32,000 nt of DNA from Candidatus Thorarchaeota archaeon. GTDB lineage: Archaea; Asgardarchaeota; Heimdallarchaeia; Hodarchaeales; Hodarchaeaceae. Position 1 is the stretch's first letter. Every line of letters starts with the position of its first letter. Made by a program: the position numbers and the translations under genes. Of this stretch, positions 8,389 through 31,952 are shown one piece after another. The notes under the pieces are model-generated. The model was given only the letters and a program-made list of their open reading frames with translations, was not told the origin of the DNA and did no database searches. Where the stretch lies: NCBI GenBank assembly GCA_048882505.1, contig JBHLRO010000020.1:32533-64532 (forward strand), written 5' to 3'.

Positions 8389-11300
8389 GTGATCATCCTC
8401 TTAATTGGATCCTCCGTTTTTATCAATTTAATTCTGCTTAATAATCCGTTCGGTGAAAATAGTCTCGTATCTACGGGTACTGAAGGTGAAATGACGACTC
8501 CCCTTCTAGCTCCCATACCCCCTGCCAATAATCCGAGTTCCGGATTGAATCCGTCCGACTCACCTATTACATATGAAGAATCAGGAAGTCGATTCGATAA
8601 TAAACCACTCCAACCTACAAAAAGCCCAACAACAACAGTATTGGAGGATGGAAGTATTATCCAATCGTTAAAGTCCATTTCCGAGGAATCGGGACTTTCT
8701 ATTTCGACAGAAGATGGAGTTAAGTTGATTAAAGTCACGGATGGCAAGCTGCGGGTGACAGTTGGATTCCATCTGTTTTATGAATTCAGCCAAAGCAGTT
8801 ATGACTCCCATTTAGCCAATACGAACGCAGAATTCATACGAGAATTAAAAGAGCTGAATGGGATCGTTGTAGAAGTTCCGATTTCGTCTTTAGCCATGTT
8901 TCAAGAGTATTGGCAAAACTTAGCTCCCGTTAGATATACCGAGGTCGCTCAAATAACCTCGATTTCTGCCATTAGCACAGATCCCGATTGGAGTCTCCAG
9001 TATGGGCCCCAGATTATCCAAGCGGATTTGGCCTGGGACATTCAGATAGGGGATCCCGCTTCGATTTTGGTTGCAGTCATTGACACTGGCATTGATTATA
9101 ACCATCCCGACCTAGTAGATCAGTACGTCGCTGGGGGATATGACTATGTCAATGACGACACCGACCCTATGGATGATCACTCACATGGGACCCATTGTGC
9201 CGGCATTATTACTGCAACCATCAATAATAGTGTGGGCATCGCAGGAGTCGCCAATGTTTCCATTATGGGGTATAAAGTTTTCAACTCTCTAGGGTATGGG
9301 TATGATTATGACGCGGCCAGTGCCATCATTAACGCGACAGATGCTGGGGCAACCGTGCTCTCAAACAGCTATGGGTTCCCCACCACCAGTACTGCCCTAG
9401 AGGATGCCGTAGCGTATGCGGCAGCCAATGATGTGGTTGTCGTCGTGTCAGCTGGAAATAGCGGCGCACCAGTCTCATCCTATCCTGCATTATATCCTGA
9501 AACAATTGCAGTTAGTGCTACCGACGATACCGACACACCAGCCTCATTCACCAGTTACGGGCCTGCCGTTGATGTGGCCGCTCCAGGAGTCACGATTTGG
9601 TCTACCGTGCCCGTTTCAATGGGAAGTTATGGTTATAAAAGTGGAACATCCATGGCCGGTCCCCATGTGGCTGCAGTGAGTGCCTTGATCCGTGCCGAAT
9701 TTCCTGGCTATTCTGCAGATCAGGTACGCCAGCATCTACGCAATACAGCTGACGATCTAGGGCCGGTCGGGTGGGATGATTATTATGGGTATGGCCGGAT
9801 TAATGCCTATAAGGCAGTGCAGCCTCCTCCCGACCATGAACTTGTCACCTACCTGCTAGGAGCTCCAATGAACCAACTCCCAGGTGAGTCTATCAACTTA
9901 ACCGTGATTGTTTTTAACTTTGGACAGAATTTGGAGAGCAATGTTGAACTCCAGCTGTGGATAGATAACGCTTCAGTCAAGACTCAAACTTTCACATCAT
10001 TAACGTTTGGAGACAACGGAACTTTCAAACATACGTGGACGCCAATCGCTGAGGGAGTTCACAACATCACAGCCTACACACTCCCCGTGTTAGGTGAGAC
10101 CTTTCTGGCCAATAATCGCGTCACCAAAATGGTCGACGTAAGCTTTCCGATTATTACGTACAACCTAGGTGATTACATTCATCTAGATGAGGTCGGTGTG
10201 GGGCTTTACGCCAATTTCACGTATGAATATGATATTGACCCGACCCATGTTCGTGTCGGTCTGGGAGACGGATACAGTTGGCTTTCTGTTAATACCTTGA
10301 ACCGTTTAATTGAAGGGGGGACTAAATCCAGCTGGGACGGAACAAACTATATGGGCCAAATTGAAACGGATATCGGCCCAAATAGCACCATTGATTGGTT
10401 TTCAACGACTGGCAGTGTTAATGGAACCGCATTTTACGACTGGAATGGCATGATGTTGGAAGCCTGGAATGTCACGATCGCCTGGGGAGATACTTACGCC
10501 TATTATCACAAAGAAACAGGCATCTGGCTTTACTATAAGGAATGGACGGGCCTGGAAGTCCATATGGTGAATACCAGCATGATTGTATGGCAGCCGCCAG
10601 AACATGATCTCCAAACATCGTTGGAAACACCGGGATTACTACCTCCGGGAAATACCACTATCATCAATGCATCGGTATACAATGGCGGCGCGAGTAATGA
10701 AACAGATATTGAACTCCAGCTGTGGATTAATAACAACATGGTTGCTAATCAAATCTATCCCTCTCTTCTTTCGGGAACTGAGGAAACGTTTTCGTACCCC
10801 TGGACCCCTATGGCTGAAGGGTCATACAACATAACAACCTATGCGTTACCCGTGGTGAATGAATCCCGCGTATTTAATAATCGGCAAACTCGTATAATGC
10901 AAGTCCAAATCCCTGGTCAGTATCTGATTTTGCAGGATGCTTATCCGTGGAACTATAATTGGACAGTTATCCTCGAATCAAATGGTATTGCTTTTAATGT
11001 ACTTGAGTCCCAATTCTTTGGGTCAACCAATCTATCCTTCTATCAACGAGTCATTATCCCTTCAGACCAGCCGCAAAGCTATTATGATGCATTATCTCTA
11101 CATTTGGGGTGGCTTGAGGCCTATTCGCAGGCTGGGGGCATTGTAGAGATACATGCGGCCGATCGGGGTTCTAATTCTGGTACATGGAGCGGTACCCTCC
11201 CCTTAGGCATTATTTATCATTATTCCATCCAGAATATCATAGATGTGGAAGATCCCAGTAACCCGATTTTCTTTTCTCCCAATATAATCACCGATGACGA

Positions 11301-14187
11301 ACTGGATTACTGGGGCGTATCTGCACATGGCTATTTATCGAATACTGGCGGAGCCAATGTCATTCTCTCGGGCGCAGGATTACCCATTCTTATTGAAACC
11401 ACGCATGGACAGGGCTATTACCTGATTAGTTGTCAAACATTAGAACGGGCGTACAACTGGGGATATAGTATGATCTTGGAGAACATTTTGCTCTATAATC
11501 CCACACCTGCGCATGAGCTTGGTACGGTGTTAACGACTCCCTCTCTACTTCCAAACGGGACGTCTATGCTAATAAATTTCTCAGTAATTAATCGAGGAAT
11601 TAATGATGAATTCAATGTGGAGCTCCAATTGTGGATCAACAAGACCCAAGTGGTCAATCAAATTTATCCCACTTTAGCCAGCGGGGCATCTGAAACATTA
11701 AATTATCTCTGGACTCCCTCTAAGATCGGGATATATAATGTCACGGCCTATGCCGCTCCGGTTACAAATGAAAATCTCGTTCTTAACAATTACGTGGAAG
11801 AGCTGGTGACGGTCAAGGTTCTAGTCAATTATCAGATGTTTGAAATTCACTATAAATGGTTCGATGCCTATACCAACGGCTATAATTTGAATCTCACTGG
11901 AGATGATGTATCCGAAGCTGTAAATATCCCGTTTACGTTTTTTTATTACGACGCTAACTTTACTACCATCTATATCAGTTCAAATGGCTGGCTATCTTTT
12001 GTTGATTCTACCCCTTGGGATAATATAAATCCGTCATTCCCCAATAGCGCCTACCCCTACGTAATTGCTCCCTTTTGGGAGGATTTAGAGGCCAAAAACA
12101 ACACGTACGTCTGGAATACATCAACCTTTCTTGTTATTGAATATCACAATTATACCTATTTGGGAGGAACGGAAGTAGGGACCTTCGAAGTAGTTCTTTT
12201 TGCGAATGGAACGATTTACTTCCAGTTTCAATCCATTAATTTGGATTCTGGGGCAACGGTTGGCCTTAATTATGGCTATGAACCGACCTATTACACAACC
12301 TATCCTACCGCGCTTACTGGGGTTTTTGAGCTGGCCTTACTCTTTACGGGCGGCACTTATGAACGTCATGATTTAAATGCAACAGTGGAAGCGCCCAGTG
12401 CAATCATATATAATGAAACAATGGTTATCCAAATCAACGTCACTGTAATCAATGTAGGATCTTATAACGAGACGGATGTGGAGCTTCAACTGTGGATCGA
12501 AGATAACATGGTTCTAAATCAAGTTTTTCCGAGTCTTCTAGTTCAGACAGAACAATCCATAACGTACACCTGGACCCCAAGTGTACGGGGCACCTACAAC
12601 ATCACTGTGTATGTCATCCCCGTCACGAATGAATCCTTTACTAAGAACAATCAGCTCACCCAACTAGTTATCATTGGTGACCCAAGTATCGATTTCGCAT
12701 TAGGTGATTATATCTTGTGGAATTTTGACCTTGGAGGTGGAATCTATCCCTGGGCAAACTTTACGTACGATCATATGATTGATCCAGTCCATGTTTATGT
12801 GAATGCTTCCATATTACTAGCAAATGCTACTGAATGGTTTTCGGTGAATATCGTCACCCGCTTGATTGAAGATGGATCGATCTGGGTCGGGAGTTACTAT
12901 ATGGGTCAGATTGAAACGGATATTAACATTAGTGATCCGATTAACTGGCTAGATTCGACTGGGATTGTAGAGGGCACCGTCTGGTATGAATGGAATGGCG
13001 CCCAGGTCGAAGCCTGGCGGATTAACCTTGATGATCTTTTGCCAGGTACCTACTGTTATTATCATAAAGCAACGGGTGTCTGGTTATATATGTGGGATCC
13101 CCAGCTACCCTCTGAAATATTCATTGTAGATACATCCTTGATCGTTCCTCTTCCCCCCACGGTGTTGGTGACGTACCCCAATGGTGGCGAACTAGTGAAG
13201 GGTACCATAACAATTACCTGGATTGCTAACGATCCCGATAATGGAAGCTTAACCTTCAGTGTCTATTACTGGAATGGAACTGCGTGGATTGCATTGGCTA
13301 GCAGTATAACCACGACATTCTTCAACTGGAATACCAGCTCTCTTATAGACGGCGACTTCTACAAAATTCGAGTGATCGTGCACGATGGCAAGTTCCAGAG
13401 TGAGGATGACTCGAATACTCCATTCATGATTGACAATGCCGCTGACCCTCCGACCATCCAGCTTACTTATCCCAATGGTGGGGAAACCCTGAGTGGAACC
13501 GTCACAATCACCTGGAGTGCCAGTGATCCGAATGGGGATGAATTGGTCTATATCCTCTACTATTGGAATGGGAATCGCTGGGTTCTAATAAAAACGGGGA
13601 TAACGACCAGTAGCTACGACTGGGATACGACCTCAAGGCCCAATGGAACCTTCTATCGGATAAAAGTGATGACATCGGATAGTCTGTTCACAGTGGAAGA
13701 CGAGTCAGATGCGCCATTCAGACTAGAAAACCCCCATGCCCCTCTTATTGCCGTAACATCACCAAACGGCGGCGAAACCGTGAGTGGGACCGTTACAATC
13801 ACGTGGACTGCCAGTGACCAAGATGCGAACCCCCTGACATTTGAGCTGTATTATTGGGATGGAGCCACCTGGAAGGAAATAACATCTGGGATATCCACAA
13901 CCACCTACGTCTGGGACACTACTAATGTGCTGGATGGTGATTTCTATCAAATCAAGGTCATTGTGAGCGATGGGGCCTTGGAAAACGAAGACATCTCAGA
14001 TGGAAGTTTCACCATAGATAATGATGGACAAGTAATCACGAATCCTTCGACTCCGACAACTCCTTCAACTTCGGCATCTCCTTCATCAACTACTACAACC
14101 ACCTCGACATCAGGGTTTGAGCCGTTTCTTATACTAATCGCTCTTCTGTCTCTTGAAATGATTTCAATTGCCAGGAGAAAAGAGTGA
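8389..14187 (+). CDS. Large cell-surface S8 (subtilisin-like) serine protease with CARDB, NIDO-like and Ig-like domains and a C-terminal membrane anchor
   Basis: Catalytic triad VIDTGID / HSHGTHCAG / GTSMAGPHV, I9-like propeptide, four CARDB-like repeats (ELQLW...WTP...NIT), three PNGGE..SGTVTITW Ig repeats, Ser/Thr linker and SGFE-TM-RRKE tail. Confidence 0.96.
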   Translation: MIILLIGSSVFINLILLNNPFGENSLVSTGTEGEMTTPLLAPIPPANNPSSGLNPSDSPITYEESGSRFDNKPLQPTKSPTTTVLEDGSIIQSLKSISEESGLSISTEDGVKLIKVTDGKLRVTVGFHLFYEFSQSSYDSHLANTNAEFIRELKELNGIVVEVPISSLAMFQEYWQNLAPVRYTEVAQITSISAISTDPDWSLQYGPQIIQADLAWDIQIGDPASILVAVIDTGIDYNHPDLVDQYVAGGYDYVNDDTDPMDDHSHGTHCAGIITATINNSVGIAGVANVSIMGYKVFNSLGYGYDYDAASAIINATDAGATVLSNSYGFPTTSTALEDAVAYAAANDVVVVVSAGNSGAPVSSYPALYPETIAVSATDDTDTPASFTSYGPAVDVAAPGVTIWSTVPVSMGSYGYKSGTSMAGPHVAAVSALIRAEFPGYSADQVRQHLRNTADDLGPVGWDDYYGYGRINAYKAVQPPPDHELVTYLLGAPMNQLPGESINLTVIVFNFGQNLESNVELQLWIDNASVKTQTFTSLTFGDNGTFKHTWTPIAEGVHNITAYTLPVLGETFLANNRVTKMVDVSFPIITYNLGDYIHLDEVGVGLYANFTYEYDIDPTHVRVGLGDGYSWLSVNTLNRLIEGGTKSSWDGTNYMGQIETDIGPNSTIDWFSTTGSVNGTAFYDWNGMMLEAWNVTIAWGDTYAYYHKETGIWLYYKEWTGLEVHMVNTSMIVWQPPEHDLQTSLETPGLLPPGNTTIINASVYNGGASNETDIELQLWINNNMVANQIYPSLLSGTEETFSYPWTPMAEGSYNITTYALPVVNESRVFNNRQTRIMQVQIPGQYLILQDAYPWNYNWTVILESNGIAFNVLESQFFGSTNLSFYQRVIIPSDQPQSYYDALSLHLGWLEAYSQAGGIVEIHAADRGSNSGTWSGTLPLGIIYHYSIQNIIDVEDPSNPIFFSPNIITDDELDYWGVSAHGYLSNTGGANVILSGAGLPILIETTHGQGYYLISCQTLERAYNWGYSMILENILLYNPTPAHELGTVLTTPSLLPNGTSMLINFSVINRGINDEFNVELQLWINKTQVVNQIYPTLASGASETLNYLWTPSKIGIYNVTAYAAPVTNENLVLNNYVEELVTVKVLVNYQMFEIHYKWFDAYTNGYNLNLTGDDVSEAVNIPFTFFYYDANFTTIYISSNGWLSFVDSTPWDNINPSFPNSAYPYVIAPFWEDLEAKNNTYVWNTSTFLVIEYHNYTYLGGTEVGTFEVVLFANGTIYFQFQSINLDSGATVGLNYGYEPTYYTTYPTALTGVFELALLFTGGTYERHDLNATVEAPSAIIYNETMVIQINVTVINVGSYNETDVELQLWIEDNMVLNQVFPSLLVQTEQSITYTWTPSVRGTYNITVYVIPVTNESFTKNNQLTQLVIIGDPSIDFALGDYILWNFDLGGGIYPWANFTYDHMIDPVHVYVNASILLANATEWFSVNIVTRLIEDGSIWVGSYYMGQIETDINISDPINWLDSTGIVEGTVWYEWNGAQVEAWRINLDDLLPGTYCYYHKATGVWLYMWDPQLPSEIFIVDTSLIVPLPPTVLVTYPNGGELVKGTITITWIANDPDNGSLTFSVYYWNGTAWIALASSITTTFFNWNTSSLIDGDFYKIRVIVHDGKFQSEDDSNTPFMIDNAADPPTIQLTYPNGGETLSGTVTITWSASDPNGDELVYILYYWNGNRWVLIKTGITTSSYDWDTTSRPNGTFYRIKVMTSDSLFTVEDESDAPFRLENPHAPLIAVTSPNGGETVSGTVTITWTASDQDANPLTFELYYWDGATWKEITSGISTTTYVWDTTNVLDGDFYQIKVIVSDGALENEDISDGSFTIDNDGQVITNPSTPTTPSTSASPSSTTTTTSTSGFEPFLILIALLSLEMISIARRKE
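9835..12675 (+). repeat. Four dispersed ~105-aa CARDB-like repeats inside the S8 protease (approx. 9835-10140, 10603-10905, 11512-11814, 12367-12675)
   Basis: Each unit begins H(E/D)L and contains VELQLWI/IELQLWI, WTP, (H/Y)N(I/V)T and NN; DNA similarity is still visible around GA(A/G)CT.CA..TGTGGAT. Confidence 0.88.
13153..14022 (+). repeat. Three tandem ~95-aa Ig-like repeats inside the S8 protease
   Basis: P-NGGE-x2-(S/K)GT(I/V)TITW-x-A-x-D, YYW(N/D)G-x2-W, W(N/D)T(S/T) and Y-x-I-(R/K)-V recur three times. Confidence 0.9.
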
Positions 14188-27867: not shown

Positions 27868-28443
27868 ATGACAGTATATAAAATTGCATTAATAGGAGAC
27901 GGTGGAGTGGGTAAAACGTCCATCCGTGAACGTTTTTTGGGAGGAGGATTTTCTACACAATATAATTTAACGGTTGGCGCGGATTTTGCCATGTTCGACG
28001 ATGTCCTTCGGGGAATTCCGATCCGTTATCAGATTTGGGACTTGGCAGGCCAAAACCGATTCGATTCCGTAAGAGAAGTTTATTACCAGGGCTGTGTGGG
28101 CGGACTATTAGTTTATGACGTGACTCGTCCTGAATCGTTTTACAATTCGCCAAAGTGGATTAATGAACTCTGGATAAACAATGGCCGAGGTAGAGTCCCT
28201 CTTGTCGTTGTTGCAAACAAGATCGATATGCGTGCCATTTCAGATTCTACAATCTCCGCACAAGATGGCTGGCTATTCTCGGAAAATCTGAGTAAACTCA
28301 CTGAACCTCAGGGCTTTACCTGTCCGTACATTGAAACATCCGCAAAAACTGGCGTCAACATTCCGCAAGCGTTCGCACTACTTGGCGAGAATGTAATGAA
28401 CTTCATAGGTATTCGAAAACCATCACTCCTCATTTCCCATTGA
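27868..28443 (+). CDS. Ras-superfamily small GTPase, Rab-like
   Basis: G1 GDGGVGKT, G2 T in YNLTVGADF, G3 WDLAGQ, G4 NKID, G5 ETSAK; RabF-like segments VGADF, RYQIW, RFDSVR, YYQGC, LVYDVT; no C-terminal Cys prenylation motif. Confidence 0.96.
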   Translation: MTVYKIALIGDGGVGKTSIRERFLGGGFSTQYNLTVGADFAMFDDVLRGIPIRYQIWDLAGQNRFDSVREVYYQGCVGGLLVYDVTRPESFYNSPKWINELWINNGRGRVPLVVVANKIDMRAISDSTISAQDGWLFSENLSKLTEPQGFTCPYIETSAKTGVNIPQAFALLGENVMNFIGIRKPSLLISH

Positions 28444-29072: not shown

Positions 29073-30020
29073 ATGTTTTCGTTACAAAATCCTCTAAATG
29101 GACTAGATGCATGGATCACTCCGGTTGTTGATACCCATCTGCACTTTTGGAACGAGAAATTGATACCTTTTTTCTTCAAATGGGCTAATGTCTTTTTTAA
29201 TGACTATTCTGTTGTTTCTATGATGCTTCCAGAGATGATCGCCAAAATTCCCGAAGAGTATCGAGAAAAAACTACAATTGCTCAATTTTTATCAACCAAA
29301 AATCTAGGAGAGTATAATACCTCAGAATTAATCAAGCAAATTGACCAGGCGTATTCGGATGGTGTGGAAGTCTTTAAATTATGGTTAGCGCCAAGATTTT
29401 TAGATTTTAATGAGCTAAACGGGCCATTCAACTTATTAGATGACAGACTTGAAGCGGTATTCTCACGTTTCGAAGATTATAGATATACAATTAGTGCCCA
29501 TATCGCAGATCCAGACCTATGGTATTTATTTCAATATCAGAACCGTAAAAAGTATGGACAGAAGATAGAGCACATTAGGCGTTTTTTAACAATTCAAAAA
29601 GGGTATCCCAAGATCAAATTCTTTGCTACCCATTTCGGCTGTTGGCCGGAAAACTTGAAGGAATTAGGAAAAATCCTAGACAATCATCCCACCTTGTATA
29701 TTAATACGGCATCGACACGATGGATGATAAGGGAGTTGGGGAAAAACAATGGGCAAACAATTGAATTTATCACAAAATATCAAGATAGGATCATCTTTGG
29801 AACCGATCTGCATGTGATAGAGGAACCGATGAATCCTGAGTACTTTGCCACTCGGTTTTGGTCGCATAGAATATTCTGGGAGACTTCAGTAGAGACAAAG
29901 TTACCTTTTGATGACCCAGATGCCCCGTTTGGGATACATTTTACAGGTCTAAATTTGTCTCCTGAAATATTACAGAAGATTTATGGCAGGAATTTTTTGA
30001 GATTAATGAAACGGGGATGA
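29073..30020 (+). CDS. Amidohydrolase family protein, paralog B
   Basis: DTHLH, HIADPD, THFGC and FGTDL motifs; collinear similarity to 19100-20053. Confidence 0.9.
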   Translation: MFSLQNPLNGLDAWITPVVDTHLHFWNEKLIPFFFKWANVFFNDYSVVSMMLPEMIAKIPEEYREKTTIAQFLSTKNLGEYNTSELIKQIDQAYSDGVEVFKLWLAPRFLDFNELNGPFNLLDDRLEAVFSRFEDYRYTISAHIADPDLWYLFQYQNRKKYGQKIEHIRRFLTIQKGYPKIKFFATHFGCWPENLKELGKILDNHPTLYINTASTRWMIRELGKNNGQTIEFITKYQDRIIFGTDLHVIEEPMNPEYFATRFWSHRIFWETSVETKLPFDDPDAPFGIHFTGLNLSPEILQKIYGRNFLRLMKRG

Positions 30021-30230
30021 CCGATTCTTCCAATTTTCTTTCTAGAGAGAACCTGAATCGGTCAAATCCTATCTATGGGCGACATTCGATACATAGTACT
30101 ATTATCTTCCAACAATAATCACAGAATGCAAATGACGCATTGGTTGCATTTAGAAACGGAGGATAATCTAGAAAAAATGTTCTCCTTTTAACCAAAAAGT
30201 GGGGCCTATGAGCTTATATCGAAGTAGGAT

Positions 30231-30365
30231 CTAGGGAAGAGTGACAGGGCAAGTATGACTTCCTCGGGATCCCCACTCCTCTATTGGTTGGCCTCGCTTC
30301 GGAGTGGGTCAAGATCTAGACGGAAGTGACACTATCCCTGGTCTCACCCAACTCTGCCACCCTAG
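30231..30365 (+). ncRNA. Candidate structured non-coding RNA (rod-like nested hairpin); class not recognised
   Basis: Six nested perfect helices totalling 34 Watson-Crick pairs in an intergenic region between convergent genes, followed by a terminator-like hairpin. The + strand is favoured by G-U wobbles and the T tract. Confidence 0.5.
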
Positions 30366-30384
30366 GGGCATCGTATTGGCAGTT

Positions 30385-30419
30385 GGTGGGGAGCTTTGGC
30401 TCTCCACCTCTTTTTTTTT
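30385..30419 (+). terminator. Intrinsic-terminator-like hairpin with T9 tract
   Basis: GGTGGGGAGC-TTTG-GCTCTCCACC (10 bp, one G-U) followed by TC and T9. Confidence 0.75.
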
Positions 30420-30434
30420 CAGTAAAAGAATGCA

Positions 30435-31952
30435 TTAAACAAGATGTGAATAGGTCCGTGCAAGGGATAGATTCCATTTTGCAGGGGAAGGTGGCTCAAA
30501 CGTGTAATGAAGGGTTATATCGGGGAAAGTATCGCGAATTGTACGCATTCGAGTCACGAACTCCTTGACCCAAATACTTGGCATATCAATATGACCGTAA
30601 TAAGTGGTAGAAGTCTTACTTTCCATAAGAAATATATCAATCCGTGGTAGGGCCAAACATTGCTGAAGGAAAGGGAAGGCTTCAGAACCCCGAGGGACGT
30701 CGATATACAGCGATGTTGTGAGGTCGAGACCAATATTGAAGAACTGGACGACACGGTGGAGCAGTTGGTGCTCCCAATATTCTGCCATGAGCTTTACAAC
30801 AGTCTTATGGTGAAGTTGGAGCTGTGTACACATATCTTTAATACGTATTGTATTTCCGACAGTGGTTAGGAAAGCTAGTAATTTCAAATCAGCGGGGGTT
30901 AAAGGACGAAAAGGGTCAAACATAGGAACCAAAGATATGTCCAAGGTAGGGGGAGAGACACGAGGGGCAGTATGTAGGTCACTGTAAAAAAATTCTACTG
31001 GAAGTTCCCAATAGGGATGCCCTCCAGTCAAGGAGGTTAAATTCCATGAATGAGTTCGCCAGGTGAGAGGTTCCATTATTGCACTTGGGGTAGGATCCTG
31101 CCTAATAAAGGCTTGGAGTTGAGCAAAGAGAGCCGAAGTTGCTGTTGGAAGTTGGAGAAGGGAAAGACTTTCGGGACCAAAATTGACTGTCGATAGGCGA
31201 TAGGAATCCAGCTCAGCTGGGAAGGAACGGACATGAGATATTAAATAGGTTTCATATCCTAGTTTACTCATATCTGGAAAAAACATGTCAATTGCGAGTT
31301 GAAAGAATTGAAAATGCTCTAACTTGTTCCGAATCGTCTCTGGTGTCATATGTGGAAGATAAGTGACGAATTCTTTTATGGTTGGTCCTCGGAAGAAATT
31401 CGCACATCGATCAAATACCATTTGAAACCCTTTCAATAGGGTTACGTCATATTCCGAGAGAGGAAGAGCGAACTGGTAAAGGCGTGGGAATAGAAAGGCG
31501 AATAAGGTCTCACGATCTCCAGGAAGGGTGCCTGTAGAAAGATGGTGAAGATAGGTTTTAACCAGGTTTTCCTGAGGATAAGCTAGCTCGTAAGTGATGA
31601 GCCGGAGCGGAAATGCGATCCAGCCCTCCTTCCATTGAAAACAGATAGCACCTAATCTATCCCAATAGGCGGGGAAGCACTCAACGAATTCATATACTTT
31701 GTATTTCTCGTAAAAGGGGTGAGTATGTGTATCTCGAAACAAACGCGTCAGGGCCGCTGTCTTAGAAATCTTGGGGATCCGCTCTTGTTGCACTACATCG
31801 TAAATATCAACCCAAAATTGACAGAAATCCAGAACAAATGAATCTACGACAATATTAGAGGTCGATTCCGAAAGATGGCGAAGTTGACGAAGTAGGGAAT
31901 TCATATCCTGCAAAAAATCACCCTTTTGCGACCTCAATGTATGCCTTGACAT
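30435..31952 (-). CDS. Hypothetical protein with two tandem Lrp/AsnC-like (wHTH plus effector) modules
   Basis: Module 1: LSEYDVTLLKGF...TIKEFVTYLPHMTPETIRNKL...DMSKLGY...WNLT. Module 2: LTPADLKLLAFL...IKDMCTQLQLHHKTVVKLM...FNIGL...WNLS. The start may be ATG 31904. Confidence 0.75.
   Translation of the reverse strand: MSRHTLRSQKGDFLQDMNSLLRQLRHLSESTSNIVVDSFVLDFCQFWVDIYDVVQQERIPKISKTAALTRLFRDTHTHPFYEKYKVYEFVECFPAYWDRLGAICFQWKEGWIAFPLRLITYELAYPQENLVKTYLHHLSTGTLPGDRETLFAFLFPRLYQFALPLSEYDVTLLKGFQMVFDRCANFFRGPTIKEFVTYLPHMTPETIRNKLEHFQFFQLAIDMFFPDMSKLGYETYLISHVRSFPAELDSYRLSTVNFGPESLSLLQLPTATSALFAQLQAFIRQDPTPSAIMEPLTWRTHSWNLTSLTGGHPYWELPVEFFYSDLHTAPRVSPPTLDISLVPMFDPFRPLTPADLKLLAFLTTVGNTIRIKDMCTQLQLHHKTVVKLMAEYWEHQLLHRVVQFFNIGLDLTTSLYIDVPRGSEAFPFLQQCLALPRIDIFLMESKTSTTYYGHIDMPSIWVKEFVTRMRTIRDTFPDITLHYTFEPPSPAKWNLSLARTYSHLV

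Follow-up and report, generated by a model that had tools for sequence, protein, structure and literature searches.

A predicted family of structured small RNAs adjoining an Lrp/AsnC-like gene in one genus of Hodarchaeales

Does a GC-rich, rod-forming segment between two convergent genes of a Hodarchaeales genome encode an RNA of its own, or does it belong to a neighbouring transcript, a DNA site or a mobile hairpin? The segment occupies positions 30186-30419 of a stretch of 32,000 nucleotides, the whole of which was analysed and is called the window herein, and forms a GC island (GC 0.49-0.56 versus 0.35-0.40 in its surroundings). An earlier note, made from the letters of the window, had described it as an orphan structured RNA, and had left three options: a free-standing small RNA of 170-200 nt, a long 3' element of the upstream amidohydrolase transcript, or a non-autonomous hairpin element. 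The Asgard origin that had been guessed earlier proved correct. No other archaea are placed nearer to eukaryotes than Hodarchaeales, and, as far as the literature searched shows, small regulatory RNAs are yet to be defined in Asgard archaea.

We report herein that the segment is no orphan, as it has two paralogs in its own genome and homologs in four other genomes. It is probably a stand-alone gene, transcribed independently from the + strand, for a structured non-coding RNA of ~177 nt (~30243-30419), and the RNAs predicted from the compared sequences most likely make up a new, narrowly distributed family of archaeal small RNA. The conserved block with which the unit opens lies 167 nt past the stop codon of an amidohydrolase-like gene of the same strand, a gene that is itself outside the RNA unit. 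No sense-direction gene follows on the 3' side, as had been claimed; the open reading frame found there, which codes for a protein of 505 amino acids (aa), converges with the element. The features of the locus and its paralogs are collected in Table 1.

Table 1. Features of the RNA unit, its neighbours and related loci. Plain numbers are positions in the window; C13, C14 and C20 are contigs of the same genome (G000).
Feature	Position	Strand	Remarks
Amidohydrolase-like gene	29073-30020	+	Pfam Amidohydro_2, E 1.8e-5, slightly short of the curated cut-off
Upstream conserved box TTAACCAAAAAGTGGGG	30188-30204	+	From alignments; ~-55 to -39 from the predicted start
TATA-box-like element, GAGC + TTATAT	30210-30219	+	Family consensus GAGsTTAwAk
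TAGGGAA	30232-30238	+	Conserved in G000, G016 and G020 members, between the TATA-like box and the predicted start
Predicted transcription start	30243	+	G of GTGAC, between T and G; inferred, ~+/-5 nt
Hairpin A ("rod")	30243-30343	+	101 nt; closing stem GAC-AGGG...CCCU-G-GUC, four inner helices, 21-nt apical loop at 30280-30300
Hairpin B	30354-30382	+	Stem CUGCCA/UGGCAG; loop carries conserved GGGGCAUCGU (30365-30374)
Terminator-like hairpin GGUGGGGAGC-UUUG-GCUCUCCACC	30385-30408	+	10 bp; followed by UC and U9 (30411-30419)
505-aa gene	30435-31952	-	Tandem Lrp/AsnC-like (HTH and RAM-type modules), convergent with the RNA
"b" copy of the unit	C20:64729 to ~64940 (window equivalent 32197-32408)	+	Just beyond the end of the window
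Full-length paralog of the unit	C14:87379-87609	-	65% identical to the window copy
VKOR (vitamin K epoxide reductase family) genes	C20:65320-65832; C14:83941-84411		The only two in the genome; 45% identical to each other
Paralogs of the 505-aa gene	C14:65.7-75.5 kb; C13:12698-14125

Family members and their distribution

The copies in the same genome were found by BLAST, an exact pattern and nhmmer over the whole 4.3 Mb. One of the two paralogs is full length. The other, the b copy, lies on the far side of the 505-aa gene. Its similarity to the window copy is limited to the first 60-70 nt; the promoter-like block and the closing helix are common to both, while the body is different. The b copy is 83-90% conserved in G016, a sister species (GenBank JBHLSH01, "Ca. 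Heimdallarchaeota archaeon TM2S.58"). Both copies on C20 have orthologs at the same positions in G016. The divergence of a and b predates the split of the two species, and both copies have stayed in place.

A BLAST search of 40 relatives, a strict pattern and two models (R1 and R2, run on 83 genomes of the class) recovered the element in only two genomes. This narrow distribution was an artefact, because the queries were over-specific. Synteny with the ortholog of the 505-aa gene uncovered three diverged members, in genomes G020, G003 and G018, which are confirmed by nhmmer and a third model, R3 (E 1e-9 to 9e-9). In each of them, a conserved unit of ~240 nt stands right after the stop codon of the 505-aa ortholog, collinear with the + strand of the window. 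Its 5' block reads TTAC-CCAAAAAGTCAC...GGAGGTTAAAG, versus TTAA-CCAAAAAGTGGGG...TGAGCTTATAT in the window, and is followed by a hairpin, a hairpin with a GGGG loop, and a terminal hairpin with a U-run.

R3, a sequence model of the block built on all eight members, was run on the 83 genomes of the class and recovered these eight and no others (E 7e-13 to 9e-9; next-best match E 0.0095), and the upstream box was matched by R1 and R3 in family members only. The eight are spread over five genomes of one Hodarchaeales genus: three in the genome studied here (G000), two in G016, and one each in G020, G003 and G018. These five are exactly the genomes with a close ortholog of the 505-aa gene; they are kin, and therefore do not amount to five independent observations. 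Pattern scans of viral and metagenome contig collections gave no further members. Loose-pattern matches in other genomes, three-mismatch pattern matches and borderline nhmmer matches in the own genome, and all 14 metagenome loci were coding or chance matches and were discarded.

The earlier note could not match the element to known RNA families, and this is borne out by the searches. Rfam 15 gave no match at the gathering threshold over the whole window; at E <= 10, the segment 29800-30800 matched only algC and flavi_FSE (E 5-8), both off the rod, and nothing was matched on the element at the loci of four paralogs or orthologs. No tRNA was found in the region by ARAGORN.

The promoter-like block and the hairpins

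In all eight members the similarity begins at a common box, CCAAAAAGT, at about -50, the core of which, CC(N)AAAA, is kept in every one. A TATA-like box stands ten bases beyond this distal box, with GAG and T.A.A invariant throughout the family; boxes of the TTATAA, TTTATA and TATATA types are enriched 5' of genes in this genome. Two TATA-like boxes had been pointed out earlier, of which TTATAT (30214-30219) is conserved family-wide, whereas TTTTAA is not: it overlaps the TTAACC of the block, which is CTTACC, TTTCCC or GTGCCC in other members. The sequence 5' of the TATA-like box bears no likeness to the classical archaeal BRE, and the 5' block has neither a conserved nor an aptamer-like fold.

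In archaea, 26-27 nt usually separate the middle of the TATA box from the start of transcription, and the start was predicted by applying this spacing to the TATA-like box. The rule leads to the step between T and G before GAC in four of the five copies of G000 and G016 (one base later in the b copy of G016), and in G020, G003 and G018 the start that it gives follows TG and precedes G. For the six full-length members, the start thus predicted coincides with the first base of hairpin A or misses it by no more than a few bases. By analogy, a distal box at about -50 with a TATA-like box at about -27 is the same layout as that of eukaryotic promoters of the snRNA type (PSE plus TATA).

The upstream regions of tRNA, SRP RNA and RNase P genes present a generic TATA picture. 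The SRP RNA gene (C2:280250-280290) is preceded by CCAAAAAGG and directly then TGTTAAAC, and the RNase P RNA gene (C2:75965-76006) by TCAAAAGGG and directly then AAAATAG; from these sequences, the motif CCAAAAAG recurs 5' of stable-RNA genes, with a spacing unlike that of the present family. A further motif, GGGAAAAAAC(N)GA-like, is repeated in several intergenic regions of the window between 18625 and 28562 (repeat families D4, D6 and D12), and could be a motif common to promoters or leaders in the organism.

As to the fold, all 14 motifs that had been listed (12 helix arms and both TATA-like hexamers) lie where they had been placed, and the 21-nt loop and, 3' of the rod, the 10-bp hairpin with its T9 run were confirmed as well. 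RNAfold gives 30225-30420 of the + strand a minimum free energy of -80.1 kcal/mol, as a nested rod with two 3' hairpins. A comparison with dinucleotide-shuffled controls, which had been proposed as a check, yielded z = -3.20 for this segment (2 of 200 shuffles were equally good) and z = -3.77 for the predicted transcript, 30243-30419. The complementary strand of the rod region folds about equally well (z = -4.48), and folding alone can therefore not pick the strand. Neither the C14 paralog (z = -1.35) nor the G020 unit (z = -0.28) beats its shuffles.

Comparison with relatives trimmed the rod at its base. Substitutions in the 89%-identical ortholog of G016 disrupt the two outermost helices that had been proposed (CTAGGG/CCCTAG and AGAGT/ACTCT), and these helices lie 5' of the predicted transcription start. 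For example, CCCTAG, the supposed partner of the arm with TAGGGAA, reads CCCCGG in G016; TAGGGAA, part of that outer helix, is probably promoter DNA rather than RNA. The four inner helices, on the other hand, are retained.

Hairpin A is long and GC-rich in the window and shorter in G020, G003 and G018, its predicted pairs numbering ~40 in the window, 21 in these three and ~4 in the b copies, which retain the closing helix around a loop of 7 nt. Among the window, G016 and C14 copies, pairing in the closing helix is 100%, and two of the pairs are compensated; in G020, G003 and G018, six of the 21 predicted pairs are compensated and the apical AGGGGUUCAU is invariant. Laid on the window, G016a and C14 sequences, the whole structure is 86.5% paired with five compensated pairs, versus 37-54% and zero to three with slid partners; coming from eight sequences of five related genomes, and inflated by their kinship, this covariation carries little statistical weight. 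In the loop of hairpin B, GGGG..UC is invariant despite four different stems (CUGCCA/UGGCAG, CCCUACCC/GGGUAGGG, CGCGUUG/CAAUGCG and CUCGUC/GAUGAG). The stem of the last hairpin differs likewise (GGUGGGGAGC versus GGAUGAGGAG) and is followed by U5-U9 in the six full-length members, where the U-run is also the 3' limit of similarity. The T-runs are T9, T7 (in four members), T5 and T8, with just T4 in G016b. The two b copies end in a T-run, and neither hairpin B nor the terminator hairpin was found in them.

Between G000 and G016, identity amounts to 92% in the 5' block, 87% in the rod and 90% in the 3' part, compared with 65-79% in the flanking intergenic DNA and 88-90% in the two flanking genes. 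Substitutions affect 9 of 114 paired versus 13 of 68 unpaired positions of the window fold (Fisher p = 0.034). A small protein was considered and rejected; no reading frame stays open between the orthologs.

What is generally looked for in a stand-alone archaeal small RNA is thus present: a TATA-like box ~26 nt 5' of the RNA start and an oligo-T end, both read from sequence alone, and, within a small sample, a conserved structure with compensatory changes and no conserved open reading frame. Of the three options raised earlier, the comparative evidence favours the free-standing RNA of 170-200 nt over the other two, because the promoter-like block is present in 8/8 members, the stems covary, the units end in T-runs and their orientation flips between genomes. 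A 3' element of the amidohydrolase transcript is unlikely, given that the gap between that gene and the unit (30021-30185, 165 nt) is just 71% identical to its ortholog and that the units of other genomes are not placed behind an amidohydrolase gene.

Strand and alternative readings

It is unlikely that the segment acts as DNA, with the Lrp-like regulator using the block as its operator and the GC-rich palindromes terminating transcription or insulating the convergent genes from each other. Such action would suit a block that is kept as sequence without a conserved fold, a neighbour whose predicted model has an Lrp/AsnC DNA-binding fold, and a terminator-like hairpin situated between convergent genes. 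It fails, however, on the stems that change with pairing kept, on the asymmetry of G.U pairs between the strands and on the conserved hairpin loop, and it leaves ~170 nt of constrained sequence 3' of the block unexplained. Moreover, the contexts of the b and C14 copies are divergent or tandem, and such contexts have no need of a bidirectional terminator.

For an RNA, the strand has to be decided. The unit of G020, G003 and G018 has the same sense as the 505-aa ortholog and lies 21-77 nt past its stop codon, whereas in the window and in G016 the unit and the gene converge. The orientation therefore flips between genomes in such a way that no single neighbouring mRNA carries the unit everywhere; in the window, where the unit converges on its neighbour, it needs a promoter of its own. 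In five of the six members, the 3' module folds more stably than its complement does, with 13 G.U pairs versus 3. Of the seven rod pairs that changed between the window and G016, one is kept on the + strand and three on the - strand, and the energies of the whole unit do not separate the strands. Because of the stability of the 3' module, the run of similarity from the promoter-like block to the U-run, and the flip in orientation, the + strand is likely the functional one.

If the - strand were functional, the unit would be a long structured 3' untranslated region (UTR) of the 505-aa Lrp-like mRNA, or the source of an RNA derived from that 3' end, which would terminate at a T5 within the conserved block (CCCCACUUUUUGG). 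We regard this as improbable. Its attractions are that the window unit starts 15 nt past the stop codon of the 505-aa gene on the - strand, that the T5 is held by the invariant block on that strand, that the - strand has the fold of z = -4.48, and that 3/7 of the changed rod pairs in G016 keep pairing solely there. Against it, unit and gene have the opposite relative orientation in G020, G003 and G018, so that a role as 3' UTR demands opposite RNA strands in the two groups, and the preference of the 3' module (5/6 members; 13 G.U versus 3) is for the + strand. In addition, the similarity would begin at an A-run, with the promoter outside the conserved unit, and neither the C14 copy nor the b copies are found 3' of any paralog of the 505-aa gene.

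That the unit is a cis-acting leader, attenuator- or riboswitch-like, for downstream genes is very doubtful. The suggestion comes from the VKOR genes, of which the genome has exactly two, each 3' of an RNA copy and on the same strand (390 nt from the b copy and ~3 kb from the C14 copy), and it would make this link a functional one. The window copy, however, has no sense-strand gene 3' of it; the VKOR gene that follows the b copy is equipped with a conserved TTTATATATAA box and leader of its own; no such element precedes the VKOR genes of other species of the genus; the RNA unit and VKOR are on different contigs in G020 and G003, and no VKOR was found in G018; and the 5' block is without a conserved aptamer-like fold. 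Assignment to the riboswitches or attenuating leaders as a class was also rejected, the next gene being convergent and the 5' block lacking a conserved fold. The leader of the C20 VKOR gene, which follows the conserved TTTATATATAA box, is ~170 nt long and contains a GGTACCTCGGAGGGTACC hairpin. We take the pairing of VKOR and RNA to stem from an old joint duplication, and not from a leader function of the RNA, because the C20 VKOR gene has its own TATA box and leader and VKOR genes elsewhere in the genus occur without the element. In a duplex test against the mRNA starts of VKOR, the 505-aa gene and a 348-aa gene, the GC-rich VKOR of C14 scored well with every RNA.

Least credible is a mobile or repeat-derived hairpin (MITE-like or attC-like), or a decaying remnant without function: a GC-rich imperfect palindrome in AT-rich intergenic DNA, in more than one copy and with two copies bracketing one gene in direct orientation, might suggest it, but there are just three copies in 4.3 Mb, without terminal inverted repeats, target duplications or attC core sites, the a and b copies each sit at the same place in G016 after a divergence older than the species split, conservation exceeds the intergenic background, and the scans of viral and metagenome contigs were without further members. 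The non-autonomous hairpin element of the earlier note is accordingly rejected on its three copies per genome and conserved synteny.

A possible mode of action and a candidate protein partner

For the stand-alone RNA on the + strand, we infer transcription, an exact start and a function as follows. Transcription would begin ~26 nt 3' of the TATA-like box GAGC-TTATAT, and the second conserved box, CCAAAAAGT at about -50, would lie at a site fit for an archaeal activator or repressor. The nascent transcript would fold from its first bases into the long hairpin, or rod, and then into a second hairpin that displays the G-rich loop GGGGCAUCGU, and would end with a hairpin and U9. Our best guess is a regulatory RNA for which this exposed loop is the point of contact, be it with C-rich RNA through base pairing or with a protein. 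Being G-rich, the loops of the family resemble, rather than complement, the Shine-Dalgarno sequence.

The constant neighbour of the unit in the five genomes is the ortholog of the 505-aa protein, which is 44-47% identical in G020, G003 and G018. No match to this protein was found in Pfam or NCBIfam. Its AlphaFold2 model (pLDDT 90.7, pTM 0.87) consists of repeated HTH and beta-alpha-beta-beta modules, and the best structural matches to the model in Foldseek are the fused Lrp-like NirDL (E 2e-5) and then the Lrp/AsnC regulators LrpC, ST1022 and NMB0573. The homologs carry the label Hodarchaeales, and further orthologs (P0002-P0009) exist. Proteins of this tandem Lrp/AsnC-like family, ~480-500 aa long and without a Pfam match, are often encoded in clusters, with six in the present genome and up to 11 matches in G020. 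The closest solved fold being that of the siroheme decarboxylase NirDL, both regulators and enzymes are conceivable in the family.

From the gene neighbourhood, expression of the RNA may be controlled by the adjacent Lrp-like protein, or the RNA may work with it; the C14 copy has no Lrp-like neighbour within ~12 kb. A more specific proposal, which we put forward as a long shot, is that RNA and protein form a dedicated module of a Hodarchaeales subclade, in which the protein would bind the G-rich loops as a ribonucleoprotein or drive the two-box promoter. If true, no regulatory RNA circuit would have been defined before it in the archaeal lineage nearest to eukaryotes. On present evidence, the family is another lineage-restricted small RNA, of a kind that is common in prokaryotes. 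It nonetheless provides a concrete gene model, with promoter boxes, a predicted start, three hairpins, a loop motif and a candidate protein partner.

Among known archaeal RNAs, the closest likeness is to the trans-encoded small RNAs of intergenic regions, such as sRNA154 and sRNA162 of Methanosarcina mazei and SHOxi of Haloferax volcanii. Like these, the family is intergenic, structured, 100-250 nt long and lineage-restricted, with its own (predicted) TATA-type promoter and an oligo-U end. Unlike them, it has a second box at about -50 and a constant Lrp-like neighbour, and belongs to an uncultured lineage of Hodarchaeales in which it is known from sequence; it has no sequence or Rfam relationship to the M. 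mazei and H. volcanii examples.

In bacteria, small RNAs that occur as paralogs or next to a regulator gene include Qrr1-5 with LuxO, OxyS with OxyR, and GcvB with GcvA. The present family resembles this type in that the promoter region and one part of the RNA are retained among its paralogs, the remainder being divergent, and in that a gene for a (predicted) regulator-like protein directly adjoins the RNA gene; it differs in its archaeal transcription machinery. The RsaE/RoxS-type RNAs of Firmicutes act through C-rich loops, and share with the family short, conserved, homopolymer-like loop motifs on variable stems, but the loops here are G-rich (GGGGyrUC and AGGGGUUCAU) and there is no homology. 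Bacterial 6S RNA, a rod-like RNA that mimics an open promoter, is comparable to the window RNA in size and in being a long, mostly double-stranded rod. However, the large central bubble is absent, the rod is one hairpin with two more behind it, its length is not conserved in the family, and Rfam gives no 6S match.

Several other classes were considered and rejected. Inspection of the full-length members revealed no ANA box 3' of hairpin A, hairpin B or the last hairpin, as in box H/ACA RNAs, nor was a tandem G.A/A.G motif seen on inspection or any H/ACA family of Rfam matched. With regard to box C/D RNAs, the GUGAC or AUGAC at the start is not a C box, no CUGA precedes the U-run, and Rfam gave no match. 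The K-turn, attC and origin-recognition-box readings were ruled out by inspection. A Y RNA of a Ro ribonucleoprotein was dismissed since the TROVE domain (PF05731) was not found in the own genome (94.6% complete), while control genomes respond.

Elsewhere in the window, a gene for a small GTPase of the Ras/Roc family, typical of Asgard genomes, is present on the + strand at 27868-28443 (Pfam Ras, E 8e-38). Diverged tandem repeats with periods of ~291-294 nt (13171-13820) and ~765-909 nt (9941-12504) occur within a long coding sequence, and are likely to code for repeat domains in a very large protein of the surface type.
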